64,000 bases of DNA from an uncultured bacterium. GTDB taxonomy: Bacteria > JAGOEH01. The notes beneath the pieces are model-generated. The model was not told the origin of the DNA, searched no databases, and saw only the letters and a list, made by a program, of their open reading frames with translations. Shown one piece after another: positions 1,882 through 56,109 of the stretch. How positions within the stretch are numbered: the stretch's first letter is position 1; each line of letters opens with the position of its first letter. A program made the translations under genes and the position numbers. The DNA is taken from contig CAZWDO010000009.1 in the NCBI GenBank assembly GCA_964632485.1, forward strand, positions 12,850 to 76,849. The letters are read 5' to 3'.

Positions 1882-1895
1882 GGATTGCTCCTCTT

Positions 1896-2429: not shown

Positions 2430-2657
2430 AGAATGTAATATAATACAATAGATCATATCCGCAAGTCTTTTATCGGCGAGGAAAAAAAACAGGGTATTAT
2501 TCTCCCTTTCAGATTGAGTGTCTAATTGGCGCCAGAACGCCGGAAAGAAATCCGGCATTATGGCGTCGGCCGTTGGGCTTCTTTTTGTGAGTTGTGGCAT
2601 GGCAAGCAATCCCCTGTTGGGTTTTGAATTTATCCGGGCACTATTTTTGGATAATCT

Positions 2658-3536: not shown

Positions 3537-3547
3537 AGTAATCCTCC

Positions 3548-6016: not shown

Positions 6017-6087
6017 GTTGTCCTCCACGAGTTAAAGGTGTTGGTCATGACCTTTACTTCAATATACGCGTGAGGGAGAAAACACAC

Positions 6088-7320: not shown

Positions 7321-7323
7321 CTA

Positions 7324-39593: not shown

Positions 39594-42335
39594 ATGTCTA
39601 AAAATTATTTGCTTGTGTTGATTGTTGTTATCTGTTTAATGAGTCAAGTTGTCGCTTTCCGTTTGCCGCCCAATGGGAGGATCAATGATGAAACCCGGCG
39701 TTGGGCGCAGTCGTTGGCCGAACATTATGCGGAAGGCAATTTGTATGAAATGATTCAGGCCCGTCGGGCGCGGCTGTTGTCAATCCACAATCCCAAGGAA
39801 CGGTTGGCAGCCATGCAGCGTGAAGCGATGGAAATTCATATTCCGGTGGTATGCGGGTATTATGCCGACGTGCCTCCCACCTATTCTGATTTTTCCAGTC
39901 GTATGCAGAACCGGCTGTTTGAGGGTACCGATACCACTATGCGGAATTTTTATCTGGAAAATTCCTACAACCAGTTCACTGTTTCCGGCCAGGTTTATAA
40001 TTGGGTAGCGCTTCCCGGGAATGAAAACGAATACGTGAATACCTCAACCGGCCATTCAGGCAATACCGGCAAACTGATCCACGATATCCTCGACGACTTG
40101 GACAACACCGTGGATTTTAGTATTTACGATAATGATGGTGATGGAAATGTGGAGAATTTGTGTGTGGTCTTTTCCGGCCCCGGGCAGGAGTATTTCGGAG
40201 ATGAGGATACCACCAATGTTCATATCTGGTCGCATAGTTCTTACTTACGGAGTAAAAGCGGCGGAGTGTTCCGTACGAATGACACGAATAGTATGGGGTT
40301 GCGGGTTAGCATCGATAAATATACCATTCAATGCGAGACCAAGGGAGATGGTTCGATTTCGGGTATCTCCGTATTTTGCCATGAATTCGGCCATGTTTTG
40401 GGTTTGCCCGATTTATATGATATCGATTATACCACCCGGGGTACCGGCAATTGGTGCCAGATGGCCAGCGGTTCGTACAATACGGAAGATTGCCCCGCTC
40501 ATTTCCATGCCTGGTGCAAGGAGATGCTGGGGTGGCTGATGGTGACTGAAATCACGGAAGCGACGCAAAATCTGGAGCTTTATCCCATTGAGACCCATCC
40601 GATTGCTTATAAAATATGGCGGAACGGCGTGATTCAGCCCTTTACCCCGTACCTGATCAATGGAAACCCCGGCCCCAATCTGGGCGAGGAATATTATCTA
40701 CTGGAATATCGCAAGCGGATCGGATTTGACCGGCATCTCAATGGCGAAGGATTGTTGATTTCTTATATCAATAACACGCGCGCCAATGGCTCAAACAGTT
40801 TTAACAGTTTCGATGACAGTCCGGGAGTAAAAATCATACAGGCCGACGGCCGGGATGATTTAAAGAATAAGCGTAATTCGGGCGACGATGGCGATGTTTT
40901 TCCCGGTTCCAGCGATAATCGGCTTTTCACCGATACCACGAATCCCGCCAGCATTGATTACGCTAATATCCCGACAATGGTTGAGATTTATGATATCGGG
41001 GACCCGGACACGACCATCCATTTTTCAGCCTTGGTTTCCTATCGCTACCCATTTTTTGTCCATATACAAAATTACGTAAAAAATGAGTGGAATCGATTAT
41101 TGCCAGGGCGTACCGATACGGTATGGTTTAAACTCTATAATAAAAAAGGCTCTGCCGGGCAGGTTTCGATAAGCGCATCGTCCTCGGATGAAACAGTCAG
41201 TTTTTTACAGGATGAGTTTGTTCTGGATAATGTTCCTCTTTTGGATACTATTATCACCCAATCTGTTCCTTTGGTGGTTCAGGTTCCCGCCGATGCTGCG
41301 GCCGGACGATCTCGCATCCGCTTGAATTTTTATAATAATGATGGATTTCAGCAAACACTTGAGTTTCCGATTATTATCGGATATCCTGAGCTGTTGGTAG
41401 TTAGAGAAAACCGTTATGTTATGGATTTGTCCGAGATTGATCATACTATGGACAGTCTGGCATTGAATTATGAATATTTTGACCTTGCCCGGGAAATCGA
41501 TTATGCGGGGGCGCTAACCCGACAAATCGGGTGGTCGCACCGTCGGACAATTTGCCTCTTCGGCGGTGATTATTTGGGCGCTTTTAATTCGCAAGCCATG
41601 AAAGACAGTATTCGGCAGTTTATCCAGCAGGGTGGAAATTTATTGATAAGCGGGGGAAAATTCCCCGTCATGATTGGACGGCAGGATTCTGTTTTTTTCC
41701 AGGAGTGTTTTCACGCCCGTTATGATACGGTACTGACTAATCGGTTGATTTTGCGCGGTTTTACCAATGATCCGCTTTCCAGCAATGCCCAGGGACAGCC
41801 CTGGGTGGTCCGGTTGTCCGGAGTATCGACCACTTCGTCCATCCAACCTATGCAGGGCGCGCAACCGATATGTTCTTATTGGGGATTGAATCAAAAATAC
41901 GGGGGTATCCGCTACGATAACGGCGCCGGTAAAACAGTTTTGTTCTCAATTCCCCTGGATGCAGTTACCAAATCCTATGATGCGGATGTTCCGCCGACTG
42001 AAATTATTCTAAGAATGTTGGATTGGTTCAATGGCGCTGTCGATATCGATGAAGTCGAAACGGAGCAAGAAATTGCCGGGAATCTGCGCTTCACTCTTTA
42101 TCCCAATCCGCTCGTTGAGGAAATCCATCTCCGATGGTGGAGCAAAAGCAGTCGCGCGGTGAATTTAAATTTTTTTGATCTTACGGGACGGAAAATCTGG
42201 CAGAGCAATTGGCAGGCGAAACCCGGTTGGAATGAATGGACCCTGACTGTTCCGAATTTGCCCTCGGGGATCTATTTTTACCGCTTTGAAACTGATTCGC
42301 AACACCAAACAGGGAGAGTGTTATTGATTAAATAG
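39594..42335 (+). CDS. Secreted M6-family (immune inhibitor A-like) metalloprotease with T9SS-type C-terminal domain
   Basis: Signal peptide; MRNFYLENSY, DFSIYDNDGDG, IWSH, HEFGHVLGLPDLYD (HExxH), WCQMASGS; C-terminal LYPNPL...FDLTGRKI...LPSGIYFYRF...GRVLLIK. Confidence 0.92.
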   Translation: MSKNYLLVLIVVICLMSQVVAFRLPPNGRINDETRRWAQSLAEHYAEGNLYEMIQARRARLLSIHNPKERLAAMQREAMEIHIPVVCGYYADVPPTYSDFSSRMQNRLFEGTDTTMRNFYLENSYNQFTVSGQVYNWVALPGNENEYVNTSTGHSGNTGKLIHDILDDLDNTVDFSIYDNDGDGNVENLCVVFSGPGQEYFGDEDTTNVHIWSHSSYLRSKSGGVFRTNDTNSMGLRVSIDKYTIQCETKGDGSISGISVFCHEFGHVLGLPDLYDIDYTTRGTGNWCQMASGSYNTEDCPAHFHAWCKEMLGWLMVTEITEATQNLELYPIETHPIAYKIWRNGVIQPFTPYLINGNPGPNLGEEYYLLEYRKRIGFDRHLNGEGLLISYINNTRANGSNSFNSFDDSPGVKIIQADGRDDLKNKRNSGDDGDVFPGSSDNRLFTDTTNPASIDYANIPTMVEIYDIGDPDTTIHFSALVSYRYPFFVHIQNYVKNEWNRLLPGRTDTVWFKLYNKKGSAGQVSISASSSDETVSFLQDEFVLDNVPLLDTIITQSVPLVVQVPADAAAGRSRIRLNFYNNDGFQQTLEFPIIIGYPELLVVRENRYVMDLSEIDHTMDSLALNYEYFDLAREIDYAGALTRQIGWSHRRTICLFGGDYLGAFNSQAMKDSIRQFIQQGGNLLISGGKFPVMIGRQDSVFFQECFHARYDTVLTNRLILRGFTNDPLSSNAQGQPWVVRLSGVSTTSSIQPMQGAQPICSYWGLNQKYGGIRYDNGAGKTVLFSIPLDAVTKSYDADVPPTEIILRMLDWFNGAVDIDEVETEQEIAGNLRFTLYPNPLVEEIHLRWWSKSSRAVNLNFFDLTGRKIWQSNWQAKPGWNEWTLTVPNLPSGIYFYRFETDSQHQTGRVLLIK

Positions 42336-42465: not shown

Positions 42466-45400
42466 ATGATCCAAAAAAAATTTTATTGTTGGTTAATGAT
42501 TATGATGCTGTTTGCATCATGGTCATGGGCAGGAATGACCGGGAAAATCAAGGGGAAAGTGATTGATGCGGAAACCGGCGAAGGGTTGCCCAGCGTGAAT
42601 GTGGTTTTGGTGGGCACTGTATTCGGCGCAGCGACCGATGTGGACGGCGAGTTCATGATTATAAATATTCCTCCGGGAAAATATGATATCGAGGCTCGCA
42701 TGATCGGGTATAAACCAACGACTATCAAAGATCTTTCTATTGTTCAGGATTTTACCCGTACTCTGGATTTTAAGCTCCAAACGGAAGCCATCGAGGGTGA
42801 GGAAGTTGTTATTACCGCTTCCCGTCCGATTGTGCAACGCGATGTAACGGCTTCCACCCGGACAGTCAGCGGTGAGGATATTATTAAAATGCCGGTTAGC
42901 ACGTTCAACGGGTTTATCAGCAATACCGGTGGCGCTGTAACGACCGGCGGCGGCGATGCGGGTGTGCATATTCGCGGCGGACGGGTCAGCGAAGTCAGTT
43001 TTGTGGTGGATGGCGTCAATACAAATGATCCGGTCATCGGCGGAACGAATTCAATCATTGATAACAACGCAATTGCCGAGATTATGGTGATTACCGGGGG
43101 ATTCAACGCCGAATATGGCGATGCGATGTCCGGGCTGGTCAATATAGTGACCAAAGAAGGATCCCGCGATGCTTACAGCGGCACGCTTGAGTATAATACC
43201 AGCAGTGTTTTTTCAGGGACCCGCTATGATAACGGAAATAATGAATACAAGTTTACGCTGGGCGGCCCTTTATTTTTTACTAAAAAAGCCACTTTTTTTA
43301 TCTCAGGTTCCTCCGTGGCCCGAGACAAACGCGCTGATCGGGTGGGGATTAAAATAAAAAACGATGATAAAAAGGATTTGAGCGGCACGTTTAAGCTGGT
43401 TTACCGTCCCATAAATAGTTTTAAAATGACCTTCAGCGGAAATTTATCGCAAACGGACTATCATCTTTATAACCATGCCCGCAGTTGGGGCAATTGGTTG
43501 AAACAAACTTCGTTGATCACGATTGGCAATAAGCAGTTCAATTTTCAGATCAACCATCAGCTTAGCGCCCGAACATTTTATGAAGTGCAACTTTCCCAGT
43601 TCAACACCTATACTACCTATGAGTCGCAGGATGGTAAAGATTACACGGAAATGAAGATAGTAACCTACGATTTGCCTTGGGCCTACTGGGCGTATCAAAA
43701 TGGATGGTTTAATGAGGAAACACTGGAGTGGACCCGCGATATGGATTCTGTGTGGATGGATTACTATATTGATCAGGGTTGGCTGGGTAACACTCCCGGG
43801 GCGACATCTGTTGAGGATAAAACCTTTAATGGTTGGTATTGGAGCGATGTCATCCGGATGCAGCGCGCGTATAATGATCGGTGGTTCGATACAGGCGGCT
43901 GGGACTTTAATTCAGATACGACGGATATTATATATCGCACCTTCAATATCAATAATTATCTCACCTACTTAGATATGATCCGGGCGGGAGAAACGGCTCC
44001 TGCGGAATGGGCCTATTTCGGTGATATTAATAATATGTACACCAATTTGGATCATACCGGAAATTTTAACCTGGATTTCCAACCCTGGTGGCGTGATCAA
44101 AGCACCACGCAATACAGCGCAAAATTCGATCTGACCAGCCAAATCAATAATTCCAACCAATTCAAATTTGGCGCGTCCTACCGAATGACAACCATGGACT
44201 ATATTGATTTGCAGTTTTACAATGCCAACCCCTATTATGACAGCTATCGCCATTACGAAGCGGAAAGCGGTGAATTGAAGAATGACTACCGTCCTGTCAA
44301 TATGGCGTTTTATCTCCAGGATAAGATTGAGTGGGAAGATCTGACCCTCAATCCCGGTTTGCGTTGGGAGTATTTGGATTTGGATGCCGATCACCCGATC
44401 GATCCGACCGATCTGGATTTGGGTTATAAAAAAACAGACGCTAAAACCCAGTTTTCGCCGCGCTTGGGAATTTCATTCGCAATGTCAGACAAGGCGGTCA
44501 TGTACGCGCATTATGGGCATTTCTTCCAGGTACCCGAATACCATGACGTGTTTATGAATCTGAATGCCGATATCAGCACCGGCCTGCCGTTGCTGGGAAA
44601 TCCCAATATCCAGCCGCAGAAACAGATCGCTTATGAAGCGGGCTTTAAATACGCTTTGACCCCGGATTTGAGCGTTGAAATCTCTTCGTATTATAAAAAT
44701 GTTGAGAATCTGACGGGAACGCGCCAGCAGACCACTTTTTATCACGATGCCCTGGCAAATTATACCTATTTCACCGTCGATGATTTCGCAAAAATTAAAG
44801 GGATCGAACTAAAATTCGATAAGCGTTTTGGGCCAGGTATTTCAGGAAATATCAGCTATAGTTTTATGCAGGCGAAGGGAACCGGCTCTGCGTCGTGGGA
44901 ATTTTATTTGAATTATCTTAATACAACGACTGAACTGCCGAAAATGGAATATCCGCTGGAGTTCGATATCACTCATTCCCTTAAAGTCAATCTGAATTAT
45001 TATATCGCTGAAAAGCAGGGGCCTATGATTTTCGGGTCCTATTTATTGGAAGAATCCAATTTGAATATGATGCTTGATTTGGCAAGCGGCCGCCCGTACA
45101 CTCCTGAGGATTCCAAGGGTAATCCGCGGGAGATCGGCTCGAAGCGGCTGCCTTCCTATTTTAATATTGATTTGCGTTATGAAAAAGTGGTCCGTGTGAG
45201 CGAAAAAATCTCTTTTTCCGTTTACATGATGGTTTGGAATATCCTGGATAAAGTCAATGTTCGCAACGTGGATGCGTTTACTGGTAAACCGGATGATAAC
45301 GGTATCCCGCCGGTACGGGATCCGAATAATTACACCGATTTTGCGCGTTGGGGATACGCTGACTGGGAATCGTTTTATAACGAAGACCTGCGTCGTTGGC

Positions 45401-45474
45401 GTATTCGCCAGAAAAATCCATTTAATTATTACGCGCCCCGTGAAATACGGTTGGGAATGATGTTCAGATTCTAA
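42466..45474 (+). CDS. TonB-dependent receptor with CarboxypepD_reg-like N-terminal domain
   Basis: Signal peptide, TGKIKGKVID...GAATDVDG...PPGKY, plug VHIRGGRVSEVSFVVDG, GGFNAEYG, FSPRLGISF, C-terminal NPFNYYAPREIRLGMMFRF. Confidence 0.93.
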   Translation: MIQKKFYCWLMIMMLFASWSWAGMTGKIKGKVIDAETGEGLPSVNVVLVGTVFGAATDVDGEFMIINIPPGKYDIEARMIGYKPTTIKDLSIVQDFTRTLDFKLQTEAIEGEEVVITASRPIVQRDVTASTRTVSGEDIIKMPVSTFNGFISNTGGAVTTGGGDAGVHIRGGRVSEVSFVVDGVNTNDPVIGGTNSIIDNNAIAEIMVITGGFNAEYGDAMSGLVNIVTKEGSRDAYSGTLEYNTSSVFSGTRYDNGNNEYKFTLGGPLFFTKKATFFISGSSVARDKRADRVGIKIKNDDKKDLSGTFKLVYRPINSFKMTFSGNLSQTDYHLYNHARSWGNWLKQTSLITIGNKQFNFQINHQLSARTFYEVQLSQFNTYTTYESQDGKDYTEMKIVTYDLPWAYWAYQNGWFNEETLEWTRDMDSVWMDYYIDQGWLGNTPGATSVEDKTFNGWYWSDVIRMQRAYNDRWFDTGGWDFNSDTTDIIYRTFNINNYLTYLDMIRAGETAPAEWAYFGDINNMYTNLDHTGNFNLDFQPWWRDQSTTQYSAKFDLTSQINNSNQFKFGASYRMTTMDYIDLQFYNANPYYDSYRHYEAESGELKNDYRPVNMAFYLQDKIEWEDLTLNPGLRWEYLDLDADHPIDPTDLDLGYKKTDAKTQFSPRLGISFAMSDKAVMYAHYGHFFQVPEYHDVFMNLNADISTGLPLLGNPNIQPQKQIAYEAGFKYALTPDLSVEISSYYKNVENLTGTRQQTTFYHDALANYTYFTVDDFAKIKGIELKFDKRFGPGISGNISYSFMQAKGTGSASWEFYLNYLNTTTELPKMEYPLEFDITHSLKVNLNYYIAEKQGPMIFGSYLLEESNLNMMLDLASGRPYTPEDSKGNPREIGSKRLPSYFNIDLRYEKVVRVSEKISFSVYMMVWNILDKVNVRNVDAFTGKPDDNGIPPVRDPNNYTDFARWGYADWESFYNEDLRRWRIRQKNPFNYYAPREIRLGMMFRF

Positions 45475-45494
45475 ATATAACAGGAGACAAATGA

Positions 45495-48400
45495 ATGAAA
45501 TGCATACGATTATTTTTGGGCTTACTATTTTGTCTGATGAGCGTGGTATGGTCTCGGCCTCCGCTAAACATGCCGGCGCCGGCTCCTACCCGGAATTTGC
45601 TGGGTCCCCGTCTCAATAAAACCACTGTTTTAGACACAACAGAGGGCCCCCACCAGTTCCGCATGACATGGATCGGAGTGGGAAATCTGGCAAAATACAC
45701 CATCACCAATGTAGGAAATAGCGGTTATTTTACCCCTCCGGCCACCTGGGACGGCTCGTATGATGGCAGCAATGAGACAGGTTATACGGCCGGTGGTACC
45801 GTTCATACCGGCGAATATCCCGCAGGTTCCCAGCAATTCTACGTCTGGGCGGCCGGGTTATGGGTCGGGGCCGAGGTTCCCGTGCCAACCAGCAGCGGAA
45901 CGCTTTATGATCGACGTGTCGCCGCCTGCGCTTATTATTCCGACCAGGGCTCTATGTTTCCCCTCTATACCAGTACCCAGGTCATTTCGGAAGATGAAGA
46001 GAATGGCGGGGCATTTCTCTTTCTCCAACCCGGTATGTCAAGTTCTGCATATCAGTATCAGTGGCCCTTCACCGATTACAAGTTGAATGCCCGTCGGGCG
46101 GAGATTGAACAGGAACGCGGCCTGAGCGGGTTGGTGCTTGATACGGGCGATATCGTCTCTAACCAGGATTCTTATACGGTTTATGGCGATTATATTCCCG
46201 AATCCGATGCCTTGACGGCGTTTTCCTTTAAGTATGATACCGAACCCGTAGGAGTAAAAATCATCCAGCGCACCTATTCCTGGGGATATAGTTATAATAA
46301 CTCTTATCTTTATCTGGATTTTTACATTATCAATATGAATGCCTTGCCCTTACGCAATGTTTACTTCGGCTATTTTATGGATACCGATATCGGCGATGCG
46401 AATACGCCGCAAGGCGCTTATGACGACCTGATCGGTTATGATGAAAGCCTCAATCTGGGTTACTGTTACGATTCCGATTTGTTTGAACCGGGGTGGCAAA
46501 CTCAGTCCGGGTATATTGGAGTGACCTTTGTGGAAACACCTCGGAATCAAAATGGCGAACCCCTGGGATTAACCGGTTTTCAAACCTGGGAAAACGGGGG
46601 CGAAGAGGGCACTAATGTTGAAGGCGAAGGCAATGATTTAGGGAAATATGACCAGTTATCTAAAGGCGGCTATGAGCTGTTCACCACGCCGCAGGATGTG
46701 CGCATGGTGCCCTGTTCAGGTCCGATTGTTGATTTTATGCCCGGCGATACGGCGCATTTGGTGGTGGCTATGGTAGTTGGTAATAGCGTGGCTGAATTGA
46801 AAGAAAACACGCAACGCGCCATCACTCAATATCAAAATGCTTATGTGGGCCCTACCGCGCCGCCCATGCCGCGGTATTCAGTTACGCCGGCAGACGGTAA
46901 ATGCTATATCCGCTGGGATAACTTTCCCGAAACGGTTCCCGACCCCATGTCCGCCGCGCTGGATTTCGAAGGGTACCGTATCTATCGGTCCAAAACCGGT
47001 ATTGCCGGTCAATGGGATGAAATCGCCGATTTCGATCAAGCCAATACCTTTACCGGCCGGGTGGTCGTTCCCAAATACAGCAAAGGAAACTCTACCTGCT
47101 CCATCGGGTTTAATAATTTTGTAACTGGGACGGAAGCTTTCTTCAGGGAAGCCAGATACACGATTGAGTTTCTGACTGATGAAACGATCATGGTCTATAA
47201 TGTATCCAGTTTGCAGAGTTATGGCTATCGCCGCGATGCCCGTAGTGTGGGCGCCGGATTTTGCCTCATCAACCCGGCGAATAACCAGGTGGCTACTGAT
47301 CCCGTCTATAAAAGCGGGTATTTGATTTATATTGATGGATTCACCGTGAAAATCAGCGATGGCATGGTCGTTAAACCCGATGACGATCCAACGCCCAACC
47401 GTGGCGATGTCTTTACTATTGAAACCTTTGAGGATTCTCCTATCGGAGATCAAACCGGTTTGCAATATGCGTTTATTGACGAAGGGTTAACCAATGGCCT
47501 GACGTATTACTACTCAATGACCAGTTATGACCGGGGGGATCTGGAACGCGGAATCGCGGCCCTGGAAACGGGCATTGAAATGAATAAAACGACAGCTATC
47601 CCCACCAGCCTCGGCGTTGATGTGACGGATGTCTCGGTGGTTGGCTTGACTCATGATCAGGGGAATGGCTATGGGACGATATCTATTGGCTTGCTTGATG
47701 CCGCGATCATAACCGGACACCAGTATCAGATCAGTTTTCATAAGCTGGCGTCAAATACCTCCGCTCTACCTTTGGCAGATTTCTGGCGTTTGACGGACAT
47801 GACTGCCAACACCATTGTGTGCGATACCAATACCCATAAAAGCAATCAGTCCAATCCGCTATATGACGGTTTAACGGTTCGCGTGACGACTCCTGCGGCA
47901 ACCGCCTTCGATTCGTCGTATTGGGTGATCGGGGAAACGACGTATGATTTTAATGTGTTGACTTCTACTACCCCGGATCCCTACGATTACGAGATTCGCT
48001 TTACGGCTGACGGCAGCTATGACAAACGCAATTTCAAAGCGCCTTTTGAGGTTTGGAATACCACAATTGATACGCAGGCGGTTTTTGTGTTTGGCGATAA
48101 AAACCGTAACGAAGCCTTTGACAGCAGTGATTTTATTTATATTATCCAGCGGTTCGGCAATCAAAATTCGGCGCAAATCATTATCAATTTCAGCGCCGGC
48201 GCTACTCCGCCCGTTACCGGGGATATCTTCCGTCTAACAACCCGCAAGCCATTTATGATTGATGATCTGTACACATTTTCCACGACCCGTCTGTTTGGCG
48301 AACGGGATGACTACGATTTAGATAATGTCCGCGTGGTGCCCAATCCCTATTATATGCGCGCGGATTGGGACCGGAACCGTTTTGAGCAAAAGATTTATTT

Positions 48401-48617
48401 CCAAAACCTCCCCTCTGAATGCCGAATCCGCATTTTCAACACGGCCGGCGTGCTTATTCGTAGCTTGGACCACAATCCAGCCAGCGCTACGGGAAGTGAA
48501 AGCTGGAATTTGCGTACTGAAGAAAACCTTAATGCCGTTAACGGTTTGTATATTTTCCAGGTGGAAGATTTAAAAAGCGGTAAAAAGACAACTGGTAAAT
48601 TTGCCATTATCCGTTAG
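45495..48617 (+). CDS. Large secreted protein (1040 aa) with an Fn3-like module and a variant sorting domain; function unknown
   Basis: Signal peptide without a canonical lipobox; GEYPAGS...WAAGLWVGA, DTDIGD, PTAPPMP...DFEGYRIYRS...LTNGLTYYYSMTSYD; ends VRVVPNPYY...IYFQNLP...IRIFNTAG...NGLYIFQV...GKFAIIR. Confidence 0.85.
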   Translation: MKCIRLFLGLLFCLMSVVWSRPPLNMPAPAPTRNLLGPRLNKTTVLDTTEGPHQFRMTWIGVGNLAKYTITNVGNSGYFTPPATWDGSYDGSNETGYTAGGTVHTGEYPAGSQQFYVWAAGLWVGAEVPVPTSSGTLYDRRVAACAYYSDQGSMFPLYTSTQVISEDEENGGAFLFLQPGMSSSAYQYQWPFTDYKLNARRAEIEQERGLSGLVLDTGDIVSNQDSYTVYGDYIPESDALTAFSFKYDTEPVGVKIIQRTYSWGYSYNNSYLYLDFYIINMNALPLRNVYFGYFMDTDIGDANTPQGAYDDLIGYDESLNLGYCYDSDLFEPGWQTQSGYIGVTFVETPRNQNGEPLGLTGFQTWENGGEEGTNVEGEGNDLGKYDQLSKGGYELFTTPQDVRMVPCSGPIVDFMPGDTAHLVVAMVVGNSVAELKENTQRAITQYQNAYVGPTAPPMPRYSVTPADGKCYIRWDNFPETVPDPMSAALDFEGYRIYRSKTGIAGQWDEIADFDQANTFTGRVVVPKYSKGNSTCSIGFNNFVTGTEAFFREARYTIEFLTDETIMVYNVSSLQSYGYRRDARSVGAGFCLINPANNQVATDPVYKSGYLIYIDGFTVKISDGMVVKPDDDPTPNRGDVFTIETFEDSPIGDQTGLQYAFIDEGLTNGLTYYYSMTSYDRGDLERGIAALETGIEMNKTTAIPTSLGVDVTDVSVVGLTHDQGNGYGTISIGLLDAAIITGHQYQISFHKLASNTSALPLADFWRLTDMTANTIVCDTNTHKSNQSNPLYDGLTVRVTTPAATAFDSSYWVIGETTYDFNVLTSTTPDPYDYEIRFTADGSYDKRNFKAPFEVWNTTIDTQAVFVFGDKNRNEAFDSSDFIYIIQRFGNQNSAQIIINFSAGATPPVTGDIFRLTTRKPFMIDDLYTFSTTRLFGERDDYDLDNVRVVPNPYYMRADWDRNRFEQKIYFQNLPSECRIRIFNTAGVLIRSLDHNPASATGSESWNLRTEENLNAVNGLYIFQVEDLKSGKKTTGKFAIIR

Positions 48618-48623
48618 AGGGAG

Positions 48624-49634
48624 ATGATCATGAAAAGAACAACGCTCTTATTGATAATAATGTGTTTGGCCTCGACGACTCTCTGGGCCCGCCTGGGAGG
48701 AGCCGGCTTGAATTTTTTAATCGTTAATGCCGGTAGTCGTCCCAGCGCTTTGGGAGGGGCGTATGCCGCTCTGGCTAATGATCTGGACGCGATTTATTTC
48801 AATCCGGCCGGGATCAGCGCTCTCAACCGCTTCAGTTTAAATTTTTCCTATACGCCCTATTTTGCCGATATGAGCTATCAGTCTATGGCTATGGCGATTC
48901 CTTCCGGCATGTTTGGAACGATTGGTTTATCCCTCTTGTCGTTACAGAGTGGAGATATTGAAAAGACGACTCTGGATGAACCCAATGGTACCAATTCTTC
49001 ATATAGCGCATCGGATTATGCGTTTGGCGTCACTCTTGCCCGTCCCCTGACTGACAAATTTTCGGTGGGTGGCACGATGAAGTTTATTACCGAAGGCATC
49101 GATGAAGTTTCCTGTTTCGGTTGGGCTATTGATCTCGGAGCGACTTACAACACCGGCTTTAAAAATTTTCGCCTGGGTTTTTCGATTCTCAATTTCGGTC
49201 CCGATATGCAGTTCAAAGGCGATGTGCTGAAGTTTCATTATAAACCGGTGGACCCCAATGATCCGGAAGAAAATGATCTGATGGAGGAAGATGCCCAGGC
49301 TCAATGGGAATCCGAAAAGATACCTCTGCCCTTGATGTTTCAATTCGGGTTGGCCGTTGATCTGATCCAAACTTCAGCCTACCGGGTAACATTTACTGCT
49401 GACAAGGTCAATCCCACTGACCAGGTTGAAACCTTTGCCGTTGGGATGGAAGTCGGCTATCTTGAGTTTCTGAATCTTCGTGTTGGTTATTCCGACAAAA
49501 ACGACGGTAATTTTGCCGCGGGGGCCGGGATCATTCTCCCGATGGGAAATAGCAAGGCCATTTTTGATTATGCCTTTCGGAATCATCAATATCTGGATGC
49601 TTTGCATACGTTTGCGTTAACTTTAGTGTTTTAA
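48624..49634 (+). CDS. PorV/PorQ-family (FadL-like) outer-membrane beta-barrel
   Basis: Signal peptide, FLIVNAGSRPSALGGAY, AIYFNPAGI, alternating beta-strands, LNLRVGY, FDYAF, terminal Phe (HTFALTLVF). Confidence 0.88.
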   Translation: MIMKRTTLLLIIMCLASTTLWARLGGAGLNFLIVNAGSRPSALGGAYAALANDLDAIYFNPAGISALNRFSLNFSYTPYFADMSYQSMAMAIPSGMFGTIGLSLLSLQSGDIEKTTLDEPNGTNSSYSASDYAFGVTLARPLTDKFSVGGTMKFITEGIDEVSCFGWAIDLGATYNTGFKNFRLGFSILNFGPDMQFKGDVLKFHYKPVDPNDPEENDLMEEDAQAQWESEKIPLPLMFQFGLAVDLIQTSAYRVTFTADKVNPTDQVETFAVGMEVGYLEFLNLRVGYSDKNDGNFAAGAGIILPMGNSKAIFDYAFRNHQYLDALHTFALTLVF

Positions 49635-49664
49635 GTCCGTTGATGCTGGGTACTCTCTTTTTCG

Positions 49665-49726
49665 GAAAGGGCCGGCGTATGCCCGCCCTTTCGGAATAGC
49701 AAAGGCCATCGATCGTTGCTATTCCG
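49665..49726 (+). other. Two adjacent intergenic stem-loops after the PorV/PorQ gene
   Basis: GAAAGGGC 49665-72 / GCCCTTTC 49685-92 (inner GGC-GTAT-GCC) and CGGAATAGCAA 49692-702 / TTGCTATTCCG 49716-26; no long U-tract. Confidence 0.6.
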
Positions 49727-49768
49727 TTTCAAGGTGTAAGGTTAGTTGGAGAATTCCGAACAGAGGGA

Positions 49769-49908
49769 GGAATCTCAGTTTAAAGGTGAGATTTCGATTG
49801 CCGGGACGATGTTGAAACGGCCCCTGGAATCTCAAAATAACCGACAGCGGAGTCAACCAAAATCCAGCGGTTTTGGGTGACAAGCGGCTGAAAGGAGGTG
49901 TTTGGCCG
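49769..49908 (+). ncRNA. Candidate structured cis-regulatory leader (no known family recognised)
   Basis: GGAATCTCA occurs twice (49769-77, 49826-34) around its complement TGAGATTTC (49787-95); hairpin GTCAACCAAAATC-CAGC-GGTTTTGGGTGAC; hairpin CGGCTGAA/TTTGGCCG with AGGAGGTG in the loop. Confidence 0.4.
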
Positions 49909-49966
49909 AAAATAGTTAAACTCTTGATGTCGTTGTATTTTTGTTCATTCTAACAGAGGAGAAGCT

Positions 49967-52162
49967 ATGTTGAAAAAGTTTGTGTTTGGTTTGGCTATGT
50001 TGAGCCTGCTCGTCCTGTCCGTACAGGCGCGCGCTCCCAAACAATCGATTACGGATCGTAACCTCGAGAAAATCACTCAATTTGTGGATGAAGCCGGTTA
50101 TTTGCATAAAATCGTTTACAAACCCGGCGTGGCGGTGATTGATACGGTTCAATATCTTGGTGACATTGTTATTACCGCTAATAATTATACGGCGGGAGGC
50201 GATTATGTCGCCACCTATTTCCGCCCGGCAGCCGATGGGTTTATTACCGATGTATTCATGCCTTTCGGGACAACTGGCGATTGTGAATTTCATGTCATGC
50301 GCGATACTCTAGTAACCAATGCTGCTGGAAGCTTGCGGTCATTCTGTAATTGGAATAACTGTGTCGTGGATTCGATCAATGGTTTTGTCGGTTCGAAAAT
50401 ATGGTCGGTAACCAAAGCCACGGCCGTTTCGACTGCGACATTATTGACCGAGGAGGAATATGAACATTTGAACATTAAAGCCGATGTAACCATGGGCCTT
50501 AGTGATATCCCGGTGGTTGAGTATTATCGGGTCTGGGTTGGCTTTAAGAAGTTGACTACCGGAGCGACTAATGAGTTATGGGCCCGCAGCTATGATTACG
50601 GATATACGGGCGATTACATTGGCCATACCTCTTTCAGCTATAATCAGAATTGGGCCAATCCGCTGGCCGGGCCCTATTCCATTATATGGGGCAGCAACTA
50701 TCAAGGCGATTGCCCGATGAAAGTCGTGTTTACTTATCCCGAAGGCACTCCTCCCCAGGTGCTTTCCATGGACTATGTCGCTAATACGTATAGCACTACA
50801 CCCAGCAAGAACGTATGGGCTTCTTTAGCCGATGCCGATGGCTCGGTAACCTCAGCCCAGGTCGTTTTCGGGGTAGGCTATGCCATGACGACGACCTCTC
50901 GGGTGGATATGACCTATAATGAAGATTATGATGAATGGTATGGAACCGTTAGCGGGACGTTCGCTCCCGGCGATTCCGTATATTATTACGTGGAAGCCAC
51001 TGATAACGAAAGCAAAGTGCGCGATAACTCCCTGCAGAAAAAGTATTTCGTCGTCAAAGCTCCCGCTGATCCCACTTCTGAAATTATGGTGATTTTAGAA
51101 AGTGAAGATGATTTTTCAGTTTATAGCACGGTTCTGGATCGTTTGGGAAAGACCTATGAAGTATGGGACGTTGATGAGAATAACGGAATCGATGCTTCAG
51201 TAGTGTCACTGCCGCAGATTAAATACATTGTCTGGGGCGCCCATGGTACGGGTAAGTTCGCTTATCCCGAGTTCGATAAAGAATTTCTTTCGGGAATAAG
51301 CTCCCTTTACGCGGGAATTTTCGATTTCCTCGATAACGGTGGCGGTTTGTTCATGAGCGATTATGATTATTTCTATACCCGCACTTTCGGCGGGGTGGAC
51401 ACCACCATGGTTTTAGGCGCCAATGAATGCAGTGTCAATATCGGCGAACTGGAACCCGGCAGCATCGGTTATGATTATTTTGGTGTCGGCAAATGGTGGA
51501 GCGATCCGTTCTATGTTAGCGATGATTATCATCCACAGGGCGAATTATCGTTTGCGGGCGTAGCATCCGATCCGATCACCAATAATTGGGCCACCACTGA
51601 TCTGAATGCGATCGATCAAACCGAACACTGGGGTGATTTTATCGAAGTGGCGCCGGGAGCGGAAGCAATTCTTCTCGGGAAAGCGCATGGTTATCAACAG
51701 GGCGTTCGCAAATCCAACGGCACGTGGGCCACGGTTTTCATTCCCTGGAATTTTGCGATCCTGGCCGATACTACCGGTGGCGCCAATACTTCCACCGACG
51801 CTGAACAATTTATGGCTAATGTTCTGGGTTATCTGGCCGCCAAAACTACCGGTGTTGAAGATGATCCCTTCTTTGTTAATCCACTGCGCACCGAACTGCT
51901 GGGTAATTACCCCAATCCGTTCAACCCGGAAACAGAAATCGCCTTCTCTCTGGCCGAAGCCGGAAATGTGAAAATCAGTATCTATGATCTCACCGGCAAA
52001 CTCGTCAGAAAGCTGATTGATGAAGAAAAATCGGTGGGCACCTATAAAGTTCGTTGGAACGGAACCCGCGCGAATGGACAACCAGTCGGTACTGGCATGT
52101 ATCTCTATAAGCTGGAAACCGGAACCAAGGTCCAAAGCAAAAAAATGATGTTTATTAAATAA
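49967..52162 (+). CDS. Secreted protein (731 aa) with FlgD-Ig/T9SS type-A-like C-terminal domain; function unknown
   Basis: Signal peptide (…LLVLSVQA), GAGGAG RBS; Ig-like segment (GDSVYYYVEATD), Rossmann-like segment (FLDNGGGLFMS); ends NYPNPFNPETEIAF...IYDLTGKLVR...GMYLYKL...KKMMFIK. Confidence 0.88.
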   Translation: MLKKFVFGLAMLSLLVLSVQARAPKQSITDRNLEKITQFVDEAGYLHKIVYKPGVAVIDTVQYLGDIVITANNYTAGGDYVATYFRPAADGFITDVFMPFGTTGDCEFHVMRDTLVTNAAGSLRSFCNWNNCVVDSINGFVGSKIWSVTKATAVSTATLLTEEEYEHLNIKADVTMGLSDIPVVEYYRVWVGFKKLTTGATNELWARSYDYGYTGDYIGHTSFSYNQNWANPLAGPYSIIWGSNYQGDCPMKVVFTYPEGTPPQVLSMDYVANTYSTTPSKNVWASLADADGSVTSAQVVFGVGYAMTTTSRVDMTYNEDYDEWYGTVSGTFAPGDSVYYYVEATDNESKVRDNSLQKKYFVVKAPADPTSEIMVILESEDDFSVYSTVLDRLGKTYEVWDVDENNGIDASVVSLPQIKYIVWGAHGTGKFAYPEFDKEFLSGISSLYAGIFDFLDNGGGLFMSDYDYFYTRTFGGVDTTMVLGANECSVNIGELEPGSIGYDYFGVGKWWSDPFYVSDDYHPQGELSFAGVASDPITNNWATTDLNAIDQTEHWGDFIEVAPGAEAILLGKAHGYQQGVRKSNGTWATVFIPWNFAILADTTGGANTSTDAEQFMANVLGYLAAKTTGVEDDPFFVNPLRTELLGNYPNPFNPETEIAFSLAEAGNVKISIYDLTGKLVRKLIDEEKSVGTYKVRWNGTRANGQPVGTGMYLYKLETGTKVQSKKMMFIK

Positions 52163-52193
52163 TCTCGTTAATCCGAGATAATTGACGATCAGT

Positions 52194-52228
52194 AAGGGGG
52201 AAATCGATTGCGATTTCCCCCTTTTTAT
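52194..52228 (+). terminator. Rho-independent terminator closing the TonB receptor/PorV locus
   Basis: AAGGGGGAAATCG-ATTG-CGATTTCCCCCTT followed by TTTATT. Confidence 0.88.
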
Positions 52229-52326: not shown

Positions 52327-54036
52327 ATGTTGGAAACGCTACTCATCCTGACAACGGTCAGTTTGGTTCTAGTTTTTTTTGCTATGGTTCTTTATATGAA
52401 ATTCAAGCCCAAAAAGAAAAAAACGTTTAACCGTTGTGAAGATAAAATTAGCGCGCCTTCGAGTTTTTCATTGCATGAAGCTGTACGCGGCGGTAATCAC
52501 AAACTGGTTTATAAATTGCTGCAAGAGCATAAAGACCAGGTGAATACACCCAATAAAAATGGCGAGACACCGCTTCAAATCGCGTTTAATCGGGGCGATA
52601 AGGAGATGGCTGATATGCTGATTGCCAGCGGCGCAAAAATGCTTCTCATGAATAATGAAAAAGATACGCCGCTTCATATTGCCGTTAAACGGGGAAATGT
52701 CAAGTTGGTGGAGCAGTTACTGGGTGAAAACTCGGATATCAACACTCCGAATATGCTGGGTGAAAAAGTATTACACCTGGCCGCCCGTTTAGGAGATGTA
52801 ACCATTGGCGAAATTCTTTTAAAGCAGAAGGCAGAAGGCAATACCCTTGATGGAAAAGGCGATACTCCATTGCATTTAGCTGCTGAACATGGACATTTTG
52901 ACTTTGTGAAATTGTTGGTTGGTTTCAAAGTCGATGTTAACCTTCAAAATAAAAAAGGGGAGACTCCGCTGCTAAAAGCCGTCGCGGCTGGAAAAGGGCC
53001 GATTGCGGAACTGCTGATTCAAAATGGCGCGCAGGTTAATTTGGCTAACCAGGATCAGAAATTACCGTTACACATCGCTATCGAGAATCAATCAGTTGAA
53101 TTGACGGATATTTTGTGCAAAGCGGGTAGTCTAATAACCGCGGCGACGAGTGAACACTTGAAAGGGATACACATCGTCTGTTTTAATGGGAATTTGCCAA
53201 TTTTGAAAATACTTGTCAGTCTGGGGGCGGACGTCATGGAGCGCGGGGGGATTTTAGAGGATACTCCTTTACATATTGCAGCTTTACAGGGTTATTTGGA
53301 GCTTTGCCAATTTCTAAGCGATAATCGGGCGCTGATTAATGAAATCAATCGGAATGGCGATACTGCGCTGCATCGCGCTTCCAAAGGCGGCCATAAGCGC
53401 GTCGTGGCTTTTCTACAGACCCGTGGAGCCAGCCTTGATATAAAAAATCAGTCGGGTTCGACTCCGCTTCATATTGCATGTGAGAATAGCCATCAGGAAG
53501 TAGTAGAACTGTTAGTAAAAAAAGATGCAAACATTAATATTAAAAATAAAGAGGATGAAACTCCCTTATTCTTTGCTGTCAGAAATGGAAATTTGCCGAT
53601 TAGCCGATATCTATTAGAAAAGGGCGCTTTTGCAGAAGTGATGAATAAAAACTACGAGACCCCCTTTTATTTTGCGCTCATCAAGCAGAATATGGCGTTG
53701 CTCCGGAGCCTCATTGAGCATGGGGCTGATGTCAACGCTTCATTTGGCGTCAATGATGAATCGGCTCTGCATGTAGCGATTAGTCTGCAAAATGTAGATT
53801 TGATTAAATATTTGCTGGATTTGAAGGTTAATATTAATTTCCGTAATAAGAATGGTGATATGCCCATTCATATTGCGGCCACTAAACAGGATATTGATAT
53901 TATAAAGCTTTTACTCAGTAAAGGCGCCCAGATCAACGCAAAAAATTTACAAGGCCAGACTCCTTTAACACGCGCCACCGAATCCAAAAGCGTTGCCATA
54001 ATAAAATATCTTCGTGGACAGGGTGGTGTTGCCTGA
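52327..54036 (+). CDS. Membrane-anchored ankyrin-repeat protein (about 16 repeats)
   Basis: N-terminal TM followed by KFKPKKKK; tandem 33-34 aa TPLHxA...G...LL..GA.VN units. Confidence 0.93.
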   Translation: MLETLLILTTVSLVLVFFAMVLYMKFKPKKKKTFNRCEDKISAPSSFSLHEAVRGGNHKLVYKLLQEHKDQVNTPNKNGETPLQIAFNRGDKEMADMLIASGAKMLLMNNEKDTPLHIAVKRGNVKLVEQLLGENSDINTPNMLGEKVLHLAARLGDVTIGEILLKQKAEGNTLDGKGDTPLHLAAEHGHFDFVKLLVGFKVDVNLQNKKGETPLLKAVAAGKGPIAELLIQNGAQVNLANQDQKLPLHIAIENQSVELTDILCKAGSLITAATSEHLKGIHIVCFNGNLPILKILVSLGADVMERGGILEDTPLHIAALQGYLELCQFLSDNRALINEINRNGDTALHRASKGGHKRVVAFLQTRGASLDIKNQSGSTPLHIACENSHQEVVELLVKKDANINIKNKEDETPLFFAVRNGNLPISRYLLEKGAFAEVMNKNYETPFYFALIKQNMALLRSLIEHGADVNASFGVNDESALHVAISLQNVDLIKYLLDLKVNINFRNKNGDMPIHIAATKQDIDIIKLLLSKGAQINAKNLQGQTPLTRATESKSVAIIKYLRGQGGVA

Positions 54037-54087
54037 TTTTATAGTATTTCATAACTTTGTTGAAGTTTGGCTGGTAAGGAGCTCATA

Positions 54088-55881
54088 ATGTTTAATCCGG
54101 AATATCTAAAAAAATTATTCTCTATCGATTCGAAATTTACTGAATTGCTTCAATCAGCGCCTTCCAAGCATGATGCCAGAAACGCGTTGAGCGATTATTG
54201 GGGAGGGAAACAGCGCCAACTTTATCGAAATTATCGGGAACGCCGTAGTATGGAATGGTTCCTTCAGGTAAGCTGCATTGTCGTTTTGCGGCGAATGATC
54301 TCTTTACGCAGCGAAATGCTGGCGCATTTCGATTTAATGGAATTGTTGTGGAATCTGGCTCATGAAAATTTTTCAAATCTGCCTTCTCAGTTATCGGATG
54401 CCTTTTTTGAGGATTTAATGCACGTCGTTAAAGGTGCCTGTGGTATTAGTGGCGTTTATAAAGATGAAAAAGTTCCGAGATTTTTCGGATTAAAGGGCCG
54501 GGAAGCCGCGATTGATCGCTCTCGCGAACTTGATGAGATCGCTCGTTGGTCGGATGATTTTTTGTCAGGTTATATTTCCGGTTTGGATGAGGAAATAATC
54601 AAAACACGGGAAACTAATCGCCGTCGTATTCAGAATGTTTTAGAAGGAACCGAGGAAGACTGGTTTAATTATCAATGGCAACTAAAACACGTCATCCGGG
54701 AAGTTGATACACTCGGCCGATTGATTCAATTATCAGAGACCGAAACAGAAGCCATTCGTTTGGCGAATCAGTATCATCTGCCTTTTGGTATTACGCCATA
54801 TTACGTCTCCCTGATGGATGAGGAAAGCCACCGTCGGTTTGATCATGCAATCCGCGCCCAGGTGATTCCTCCCCTTGATTATGTGCAGGCGATGATCCAG
54901 CATAAAGGGGATTTAAATTATTCTTTTGATTTTATGCTGGAACACGATACGTCACCGGTTGACCTGATCACACGCCGTTATCCACGTGTAGTGATTCTTA
55001 AACCCTATAATACCTGCTCTCAGATTTGCGTATATTGCCAGCGCAATTGGGAAATTGATCAGGTACTGGACCCTCATGCATTAGCATCAATGGAGCGAAT
55101 TGAAACCGCCATTGATTGGATTCGGGAACACCACTGGGTGGCCGAAGTGTTGATTACCGGAGGTGATCCACTGATTATGCATGATGATATGATTGATAAG
55201 TTGATGAAGATGGTGGCTGATATCGATCATGTGGAACGCATTCGCATTGGATCCCGTGTGCCCGTAGTTATACCGCAACGTATTACCCCGCAATTGATTG
55301 ATATTTTAGCGTCCTATCAAGTTCCCGGTCGGCGCGAAGTCGTTTTAGTCACTCATTTCGAACATGTTTCAGAAATTACGCCGGATTCCATGCAAGCGAT
55401 CCAACAGTTTAAACGGAACGGCATTTCAGCCTATAACCAGGCTGTTTATACCATTGAAAACAGCCGCCGATTTGAGTTGGTCGCCCTGAGGAGGCTTCTA
55501 CGCCTAATTGGCGTTGATCCTTATTATTCATTCAATGCCAAAGGGAAACAGGAAACGGCTCAATATCGAGTCCCTATGGCCCGCCTTCAGCAGGAGATTA
55601 AAGAGGAAGCTCGGTTGTTTCCTGGGATTATGCGCACCGATGAAGCGGTTTATAATGTGCCCCGGCTGGGGAAAAACTACTTGCGCGCCGAGCAAAATCA
55701 CACTCTTTTGACTATTTTGGCTGACGGACGCAGGGTTTATGAATATCATCCATGGGAAAAGAATTTAGTGATGGCCGATACGTATATCGATACTGATGTT
55801 CCTATCTATGATTATCTTAAGGCGTTGGAACGACGTGGGGAGAATCCGGAAAATTATAAGACGATCTATTATTATTTTTGA
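54088..55881 (+). CDS. KamA-family radical SAM aminomutase-like protein with N-terminal extension
   Basis: WFNYQWQL, RRYPRV, CSQICVYCQR (CxxxCxxC), EVLITGGDPL, RIRIGSR, GVDPYY, VPRLGKNY. AAGGAG RBS favours ATG 54088. Confidence 0.88.
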   Translation: MFNPEYLKKLFSIDSKFTELLQSAPSKHDARNALSDYWGGKQRQLYRNYRERRSMEWFLQVSCIVVLRRMISLRSEMLAHFDLMELLWNLAHENFSNLPSQLSDAFFEDLMHVVKGACGISGVYKDEKVPRFFGLKGREAAIDRSRELDEIARWSDDFLSGYISGLDEEIIKTRETNRRRIQNVLEGTEEDWFNYQWQLKHVIREVDTLGRLIQLSETETEAIRLANQYHLPFGITPYYVSLMDEESHRRFDHAIRAQVIPPLDYVQAMIQHKGDLNYSFDFMLEHDTSPVDLITRRYPRVVILKPYNTCSQICVYCQRNWEIDQVLDPHALASMERIETAIDWIREHHWVAEVLITGGDPLIMHDDMIDKLMKMVADIDHVERIRIGSRVPVVIPQRITPQLIDILASYQVPGRREVVLVTHFEHVSEITPDSMQAIQQFKRNGISAYNQAVYTIENSRRFELVALRRLLRLIGVDPYYSFNAKGKQETAQYRVPMARLQQEIKEEARLFPGIMRTDEAVYNVPRLGKNYLRAEQNHTLLTILADGRRVYEYHPWEKNLVMADTYIDTDVPIYDYLKALERRGENPENYKTIYYYF

Positions 55882-56048
55882 TTGGCCCTTCAGTCGCTAC
55901 ATGATTATGGTAAATTGGAAACAATTATTTTCACAGAACACTCATGCAGCCAGGGTTTGCTAAAATACGCCATTCAATTCGCATTTTTCAGATAATTCAA
56001 ATATTATATTGTGTAAAGAGCAGGGATTACATTGTTAAATGTTTTGGA

Positions 56049-56077
56049 TTGACTTTTTTGAATTTTTTTGCTATATT
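56049..56077 (+). promoter_or_regulatory. Sigma70-type promoter for the dipeptidase
   Basis: TTGACT-N17-TATATT; overlaps the track's TTG 56068, which supports a later start. Confidence 0.65.
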
Positions 56078-56109
56078 CTTTTCGGCTGTTTAACCCGGAA
56101 AGGAAATGT

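Follow-up and report, generated by a model that had tools for sequence, protein, structure and literature searches.

What serves as the surface partner of a TonB-dependent receptor in a locus that encodes no SusD? SusCD-type loci are the standard model of polymer feeding in Bacteroidota and are used to predict glycan use from genomes, and a different arrangement appears in a 64,000-nucleotide stretch of DNA from an uncultured bacterium (assembly GCA_964632485.1, contig CAZWDO010000009.1, positions 12,850 to 76,849; hereafter the window, with coordinates counted from its first letter). Its closest relatives carry the annotation Candidatus Delongbacteria (55–63% identity). Four consecutive genes, all on the + strand and together spanning 42466–52162, encode a TonB-dependent receptor of 1002 amino acids (aa; 42466–45474), a 1040-aa protein of an unannotated family that we call BIG (45495–48617), a 336-aa outer-membrane beta-barrel of the PorV/PorQ family (48624–49634), and a 731-aa protein of unassigned function that is a type IX secretion system (T9SS) cargo of type A (49967–52162). 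The gaps between them are 20, 6, and 332 bp, and the run is ended by an intrinsic-terminator-like hairpin and T-run on the same strand (52194–52223; 13-bp stem with 7 G-C pairs), the top-ranked terminator-like site of the region in a terminator scan. An earlier reading of the letters alone, the original prediction, had described four same-strand genes with gaps of 20 and 6 bp and a closing terminator, all of which were found in place. We put the probability that the first three genes, here called the triad, form the core of a SusD-less nutrient-uptake locus, with BIG as the surface partner of the receptor, at roughly 55%.

The triad arrangement is conserved far beyond chance. The scan for related loci covered one genome per GTDB species and returned more than 588 confirmed loci, the best 80 of which were examined; adjacency was counted only for BIG copies with enough flanking DNA. 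The receptor gene lies directly upstream of BIG in 67 of 68 testable related loci, and the barrel gene lies just downstream of BIG on the same strand in 64 of 65. Median gaps are 18 and 17 bp among the 45 cleanly called triads, and many of the genes overlap. Represented among the best 80 loci are Ignavibacteria, Melioribacter (with OK-6-Me as a cultured strain), Calditrichota, KSB1, Marinimicrobia, Stahlbacteria, Krumholzibacteriia, Kryptonium, Rhodothermales, Balneolaceae, and metagenome-assembled genomes (MAGs) that bear the labels Chitinophagales or Cytophagia; the triad is also present in MAGs assigned to Ignavibacterium album and Caldithrix, and the receptor-BIG-barrel order was seen in contigs of Fermentibacteria, WOR-3, Marinimicrobia, and four further lineages. 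The distribution takes in Ignavibacteriota, Calditrichota, KSB1, Marinimicrobia, WOR-3, Fermentibacteria, the window's Delongbacteria-like lineage, Rhodothermales, and Balneolaceae. Synteny across genomes had been proposed beforehand as a check on the triad, which proved to be strongly conserved in many phylum-level lineages.

Fixed adjacency over phylum-scale divergence is typical of the subunits of one complex, for example SusC/SusD, and it bears on the main rival explanation: that BIG and the barrel are a T9SS display pair with a job of their own (as an adhesin, an enzyme scaffold, or an enzyme), merely co-transcribed with the receptor. We consider this unlikely, as the near-constant position of the receptor gene directly upstream, at overlapping or very short gaps, is hard to reconcile with it. 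The distances between homologs point the same way. Pairwise correlations among the distance matrices of receptor, barrel, and BIG (its last 400 residues) are r = 0.82–0.91, and receptor-BIG distances (r = 0.91) are correlated as tightly as those of BIG and barrel (r = 0.82), the two parts that a display pair would comprise.

Correlation of distance matrices could by itself reflect species phylogeny, a tie that is broken by paralogous modules within one genome. Two such modules of Caldithrix (L018 and L037) share 37%, 28%, and 40% identity over the three parts, yet for every one of the three, L018 has its nearest counterpart in a Calditrichia module, L057 (62%, 56%, and 64%), and L037 has its own in L008 or L011 (62%, 57%, and 63%). 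The receptor, BIG, and the barrel therefore co-diversify. This agrees with the co-phylogeny that the original prediction had suggested for the barrel and the 1040-aa protein, and extends it to paralogs and to the receptor. Another locus, L005 (1–14145), holds two complete and divergent triads head to tail, with 25–38% identity between counterparts, so the triad duplicates as a whole unit.

The 1002-aa protein has the architecture of a TonB-dependent receptor, in which a plug is followed by a 22-strand barrel domain. It carries a signal peptide and matches PF13715 (the CarboxypepD_reg-like N-terminal domain), PF07715 (37 bits; cut-off 23.9), and PF00593 (94.8 bits; cut-off 27). It fails the SusC/RagA model TIGR04056, reaching 60.7 bits against a cut-off of 368 with its N-terminal half alone aligned; the receptor of a Melioribacter module scores 79.3 bits on the same model. 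The window receptor aligns end to end with that Melioribacter receptor, and its alignment with the window's other TonB-dependent receptor is confined to the N-terminal domain and plug. As judged from such alignments, the receptors form a clade specific to the triad module, which again fits poorly with a display pair that is merely co-transcribed with the receptor.

The domain content of the receptor also allows for a transporter that works outwards. Oar is reported to be needed by Myxococcus for secretion of the PopC protease (PMC6434023). The triad receptor shares the CarboxypepD_reg domain, and its relatives weakly match OMP_b-brl_3 and OMP_b-brl_4, as Oar-type transporters do; it might accordingly aid the export of BIG or of neighboring hydrolases, which the barrel would then anchor. 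We regard this as very improbable. The T9SS tails on BIG and on neighboring proteins already explain export, and many loci encode downstream cytoplasmic-membrane sugar importers (ABC binding proteins and permeases), which fit an inward flow. The presence of ExbBD-TonB genes next to some triads is neutral, fitting either direction.

BIG ends in a C-terminal domain (residues 941–1040; 48315–48614, + strand) of the form VVPNPYY...GKFAIIR. Hidden Markov model (HMM) tests of the kind proposed in the original prediction were run with TIGR04183, PF18962, TIGR04131, and the PorV/PorQ models, and at E ≤ 0.01 the BIG tail matched neither the type A models (TIGR04183, PF18962) nor the type B model (TIGR04131). 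The single NCBIfam match of BIG places residues 941–1040 on positions 669–757 of the PorZ model NF052228 (E = 1e-5); its 24.2 bits, from the tail alone, fall far below the whole-protein cut-off of 260. A search of the PDB with a BIG profile likewise gave one significant match, residues 667–758 of PorZ (5m11; E = 0.0035), confined to the tail, where the endings compare as RFAVIR in PorZ and KFAIIR in BIG. PorZ is also the top Foldseek match of the whole BIG model, with PorU further down, at TM-scores (template modeling) of 0.10–0.14 and very low overlap. We rejected BIG as a PorZ ortholog on the grounds of the tail-only match, the different domain make-up, and the several copies per genome.

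With an HMM built from BIG tails, the median score is 146 bits for 81 BIG tails (minimum 80) and 21 for 92 type A tails from the same loci (maximum 36); with a type A HMM from these loci, the medians are 22 bits for BIG tails and 111 bits for genuine type A tails. Because these scores separate the two classes while a profile comparison relates them (hhalign probability 97.9%), the BIG tail is a third class of the same fold. It is found exclusively at BIG C-termini, once per barrel, and once in the window. The last ~100 residues are also the most conserved part of BIG: mean identity across phyla is 51% there, 32% over the 300 residues before them, and 37% in receptor and barrel. What had been noticed as a variant sorting domain at the end of the 1040-aa protein, unlike the tail of the 731-aa protein, is thus a distinct, conserved, and family-exclusive class, and the tail models bear out the difference between the two C-termini.

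Homology, the 1:1 ratio of tail to barrel genes, their co-diversification, and the high conservation of the tail lead us to infer that the BIG tail is uncleaved, retained, and bound by the barrel. It has been proposed that cognate PorV-like barrels shield such tails from cleavage (PMC10947112; PMC10202324). The proposed link between tail and barrel is the best-supported part of the scheme, more so than the putative contact with the receptor, and in this respect the data speak for a display pair.

BIG starts with MKCIRLFLGLLFCLMSVVWS and carries a Sec signal peptide. The residues ahead of its sole N-terminal Cys, L-L-F, do not make a lipobox, and 30 homologs share no conserved Cys at the N-terminus; the remark that the protein lacks a canonical lipobox was therefore well founded. 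Neither the window BIG nor any of 41 relatives has a Pfam match. An indexed protein search found 416 homologs, every named one of which is a “hypothetical protein,” and a profile search of 1.84 billion representative proteins found 15,958 representatives at E ≤ 1e-3 and 2,286 at E ≤ 1e-30, giving a family of ~16,000 clusters at 50% identity. On its own, tblastn picks up just the C-terminal 60% of BIG (middle region and tail) in the most distant relatives. Homology within the family nevertheless extends across the entire protein, as an HMM of the N-terminal domain matches 69 of 75 BIG proteins.

An AlphaFold2 model of BIG based on 30 homologs has a mean predicted local distance difference test (pLDDT) score of 82.7. 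The N-terminal domain (residues ~50–450; 45642–46844, + strand) is modeled as a beta-supersandwich, whose Foldseek matches were N-terminal, non-catalytic domains from GH94 phosphorylases, from GH116, and from dextran dextrinase, as well as an aldose-1-epimerase-like protein, with probability 1.0 and low global TM-scores. The middle region (residues ~455–940; 46857–48314, + strand) contains a DFEGYRIYRS motif and appears as a string of FN3/Ig-like beta-sandwich domains, with Foldseek matches to multi-FN3 and Ig proteins, followed by the tail at 941–1040. Among close homologs N72, D232, N280, D296, D298, D310, D316, D326, and E331 of the N-terminal domain are invariant, and N72, D232, and N280 remain so across the wide BIG family. 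This acidic and amide cluster may bind Ca2+ or a ligand. It could also be catalytic, or bind Ca in a protein with no tie to the receptor, and then a display pair would gain from it.

BIG-like supersandwich domains also occur with an ordinary type A tail, adjoining M4 or M10 proteases (L090, 1–10288, and L089, 4363–10351), and one such protein is encoded four genes downstream of another triad's barrel. The distribution of the domain is therefore wider than the triad and protease-associated. A relative of this kind, P0071, adjoins an M4 protease with neither receptor nor barrel beside it, which shows the domain away from any receptor and is a further point for the display pair. The same case, in which a type A tail goes with the absence of receptor and barrel, also counts for the uptake reading. 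We nevertheless prefer the uptake reading, given the bond between receptor and BIG in position and in divergence.

The third protein of the triad passes the PorV/PorQ family model NF033709 with 177.2 bits (cut-off 90; residues 28–336 on model positions 3–326 of 326), carries a signal peptide, and is encoded on the + strand; the Melioribacter module barrel scores 199.8 bits on this model. Neither ortholog model is passed: the barrel reaches 112.4 of the 220 bits set for PorQ (NF033711), over its N-terminal half only, and 62.7 of the 250 set for PorV (NF033710). In the PDB it matches PorV (6h3i) at E = 4e-9 over residues 4–210 only. PorV/PorQ proteins are FadL homologs (PMC12578637), and faint matches to Toluene_X (in one relative's barrel, from precomputed annotation) and to DUF5723 were seen, so that the barrel might instead be a FadL-type channel for small hydrophobic products, or a housekeeping PorV/PorQ, placed by BIG incidentally. 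We rejected this idea, which we judge to be at least as improbable as outward transport, based on the model scores and the distribution of one barrel per module. The window barrel has no FadL/Toluene_X (PF03349) match at E ≤ 0.01, the family model is passed where both ortholog models are failed, and genomes hold several barrels, each co-diverging with its own BIG and receptor. The original prediction of a PorV/PorQ-family barrel is upheld by these results, and a plain FadL channel is not supported.

The uptake reading can be stated as a series of steps. Sec would export the receptor, BIG, and the barrel, a step seen here as signal peptides only. BIG would then cross the outer membrane via the T9SS, with its C-terminal domain recognized, and its uncleaved tail would stay on the extracellular face of the dedicated barrel (cf. 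PorZ on PorQ and type B cargo on PorP/SprF), tethering BIG beside or over the receptor. There the supersandwich domain and FN3 stalk would catch fragments released by T9SS-secreted hydrolases and hand them to the receptor, a task that for SusC falls to SusD or to surface glycan-binding proteins, and import would be energized by TonB-ExbBD; ExbB-ExbD-ExbD-TonB genes lie directly upstream in the WOR-3-like loci L002 and L088. A role in substrate capture is suggested by the invariant gene order, the short or overlapping gaps, and the content of the loci. By analogy, BIG probably does the job of SusD for the receptor: a single conserved partner fold goes with the receptors of loci that serve unrelated substrates, the gene directly behind that of the receptor is always the partner's, receptor-partner pairs diversify together, and SusD itself is absent from triad loci.

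Several observations weigh against this reading. A KSB1 locus (L027), the sole exception to barrel adjacency, has a BIG without a barrel, and in L002 (11412–13166) and L088 (13403–15217) a gene for a ~590-aa NHL/PKD-repeat protein without a BIG-type tail stands between BIG and the barrel. None of the 42 BIG proteins contains a known carbohydrate- or peptide-binding module. The use of one fold in loci for very different substrates fits an adaptable SusD-like partner, and equally a purely structural role. The PorZ tail reaches 25.0 bits with the BIG-tail HMM as against 19.4 with that of type A, a preference so slight that “PorZ-like tail” is a weak statement. Lastly, no T9SS core genes (sprA, porKLMN, porU) lie within the 64-kb window. 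That the organism has a T9SS is implied by the three type A tail proteins that the window encodes, the third of which is a 1134-aa protein with purple-acid-phosphatase-N-like and FN3-like segments (23047–26451, − strand).

The genes that flank triads in related loci give clues to substrate. Directly upstream of the receptors, 46 proteins include 18 with type A tails, 15 SurA-like peptidyl-prolyl isomerases (PPIases), and six with CBM4_9, along with CBM9 and GH43. Directly downstream of the barrels, 50 proteins include 26 with type A tails and eight with CBM20, together with CBM48, ABC sugar-binding proteins, GH94, GH16, GH3, GH10, alpha-amylase, pullulanase X25, and peptidase C11. No member of the SusD family is found among these 96 neighbors. 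The SurA/PrsA-like PPIases are ~565–620 aa long, contain two rotamase regions, and come mostly from Ignavibacteria, Melioribacter, and Calditrichia (e.g., 3632–5341 in L041), with none in the window; they may be a dedicated periplasmic chaperone of the module.

Locus L041, from Melioribacter sp. OK-6-Me, is a complete starch locus. Upstream are genes for a GH31 alpha-glucosidase, a GH13 cyclomaltodextrinase-like enzyme, and a PPIase, and the triad is followed by a T9SS type A protein with weak GlgB-like similarity (N-terminal, in the CBM48 region) and then by a T9SS GH13. As in the window, its BIG has only the PorZ-tail match; the NCBI names of its receptor and barrel are “TonB-dependent receptor” and “PorV/PorQ family protein,” respectively. 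Other subfamilies have the same triad in starch, xylan, and beta-glucan loci.

In the window the upstream accessory enzyme is instead an M6 (InhA-like) metalloprotease with a type A tail (39594–42335, + strand), whose gene lies 130 bp ahead of that of the receptor and whose product matches TIGR03296 (185 bits; cut-off 110.8), PF05547, and TIGR04183 (35.4 bits). The sister locus L085 likewise has this M6 gene directly upstream of the receptor, with an S8 peptidase and an OPT peptide transporter encoded in the vicinity, and other members of the window's subfamily are accompanied by InhA-like and S8 (WOR-3), C10 (Marinimicrobia), and M10 (L087) proteases. With proteases as its accessory enzymes, this subfamily likely has a protein or peptide as substrate. 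The original prediction had drawn a hint of peptide substrates from the flanking M6 protease and M19 dipeptidase (56068–57822), and both identities were confirmed. The hint holds for the window's subfamily, in which M6, S8, C10, and M10 proteases recur; it does not extend to the BIG family overall, which is mostly found in glycan loci, and it draws nothing from the M19 gene, which, like two unrelated genes, lies past the terminator and has no counterpart in L085.

Those genes stand in a row at 52327–57822 and encode an ankyrin-repeat protein (569 aa, nearly all repeats), a KamA-family radical SAM aminomutase (604 aa, with an N-terminal extension of ~185 aa), and the M19 dipeptidase, which has an N-terminal extension of ~255 aa. 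The trio may act on beta-amino acids or peptides. As parts of the system the three were rejected, being past the terminator and missing from L085.

The 731-aa protein, encoded on the + strand behind the barrel, ends in YPNPFNP...KKMMFIK and matches TIGR04183 over residues 648–728 (45.1 bits; cut-off 23). Profile searches found this tail only, with no Pfam or PDB match for the body; three homologs were gathered, even when the tail was removed from the query, and a structure model with a pLDDT of 37.8 was not used. Homologs follow the barrel in L085, L004, L056, L034, L086, and L088. Its earlier description as a second cargo thus applies as a fixed fourth gene within the window's subfamily, whereas elsewhere that place is taken by carbohydrate-active enzymes or CBM proteins.

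Between the barrel and this gene lies a structured spacer of 332 nt (49635–49966, + strand) with two strong hairpins directly 3′ of the barrel stop codon. Its minimum free energy is −111.3 kcal/mol (z = −3.26), and 0 of 100 shuffled sequences fold as well. The spacer has no Rfam match and is not conserved, the corresponding gap being 73 bp in L085; it may be a partial terminator, attenuator, or processing site between the core triad and the next gene.

Elsewhere the window consists of ordinary chromosomal genes, such as those for tRNA synthetases, Lon, NifU/NifS, RND efflux (an operon), and UvrD, and no tRNA gene or Rfam match was found anywhere in its 64 kb. The second, unrelated TonB-dependent receptor (3548–6028, − strand; 826 aa, with an extension of ~125 aa ahead of CarboxypepD_reg) is followed by genes for a 292-aa protein without a Pfam match (2658–3536), an extracytoplasmic function (ECF) sigma factor (1896–2609), and a FecR anti-sigma factor (970–1899). 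The whole (970–6028, − strand) looks like a trans-envelope signaling unit and has no BIG or barrel partner. At 6088–9903 on the − strand, a response regulator fused to a SpoIIE/PP2C phosphatase adjoins a TPR-rich histidine kinase, a pair of partner-switching type with no obvious link to the triad.

Degraders from Ignavibacteria, Calditrichota, Marinimicrobia, KSB1, WOR-3, and related groups abound in sediments, hot springs, digesters, and the deep ocean, yet no SusD gene was found in the loci covered here. A broader proposal, for which we would give slightly less than even odds, is that the triad is a three-part polymer-uptake machine of Bacteroidota relatives outside the class Bacteroidia, made up of a module receptor, a T9SS-delivered all-beta partner of ~1000 aa, and a PorQ-like barrel that holds a third, uncleaved class of tail. 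If this is true, the triad would be a marker with which to find and classify substrate-utilization loci, as susC/susD is for Bacteroidota, and would represent a functional counterpart of SusCD, possibly an alternative evolutionary solution. The sorting rules of the T9SS would gain a third tail class with a cognate barrel, and the secretion system, by supplying a structural subunit of an import machine, would be tied directly to TonB-dependent import. A role would also be assigned to a family of ~16,000 clusters that is now “hypothetical” and lacks a Pfam domain. The idea is open to bench work, as the triad is present in cultured isolates of Melioribacter.

Each component of the triad belongs to a known kind, whereas the combination, the BIG family, and the tail class appear to be undescribed, an appearance that falls short of proof. 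No description of any of the three was found in the full-text literature searched, from whose coverage most subscription journals are absent, and the earlier statement that such a module had no known description stands to that extent. A probable published mention is a “sus operon” of Melioribacter roseus (Mros0764-0758; Kadnikov et al., 2013), which comprises GH31, GH13, “SusC, SusD, SusE,” and a secreted GH13-CBM48 (PMC3534657). These names come from genome annotation only, and neither the T9SS tail nor the PorV/PorQ nature of the proteins is noted there. The operon is probably the same locus as L041, in which neither BIG nor the barrel is homologous to SusD or SusE; if so, the analogy to SusD was guessed from position and the proteins were misnamed.

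Of the known systems, SusC/SusD and RagA/RagB share with the triad a receptor with a CarboxypepD_reg-like N-terminal domain and a surface-partner gene immediately after it, pairs that co-diversify into many paralogs with one partner fold for many substrates, and loci that include secreted hydrolases and inner-membrane importers. Unlike SusD, however, BIG is not a helical lipoprotein; it lacks both a lipobox and a SusD Pfam match, and is an all-beta protein of ~1000 aa with a T9SS-like tail. The triad further differs in its obligatory third gene, the barrel, and in a receptor that fails the SusC/RagA model. The PorQ-PorZ attachment complex of the Porphyromonas gingivalis T9SS is similar in that the best match of the BIG tail is the PorZ tail, both ending in ...FA(I/V)IR, and that the best ortholog-level match of the barrel is PorQ. 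BIG nonetheless has another architecture than PorZ, with supersandwich and FN3 domains, and the triad occurs in many copies per genome, inside receptor operons and not with T9SS genes.

Type B C-terminal domains and their PorP/SprF barrels in Flavobacterium johnsoniae and P. gingivalis (PG1035) likewise set cargo and specialized barrel side by side, the cargo pairing specifically with the adjacent PorP/SprF shuttle or anchor barrel (PMC12618676; PMC9143113). In contrast, the triad barrel is of the PorV/PorQ and not the PorP/SprF kind, BIG has no TIGR04131 match, and the known type B pairs are adhesins without an attached receptor. A structural precedent for a barrel as adaptor between a large barrel and a surface protein is BamG-BamH of the Bacteroidota beta-barrel assembly machinery, in which a 14-stranded FadL-like barrel packs on another barrel and holds a surface protein by its extracellular loops (PMC12578637). 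This pair lacks a T9SS tail and works in outer-membrane biogenesis, not in uptake.

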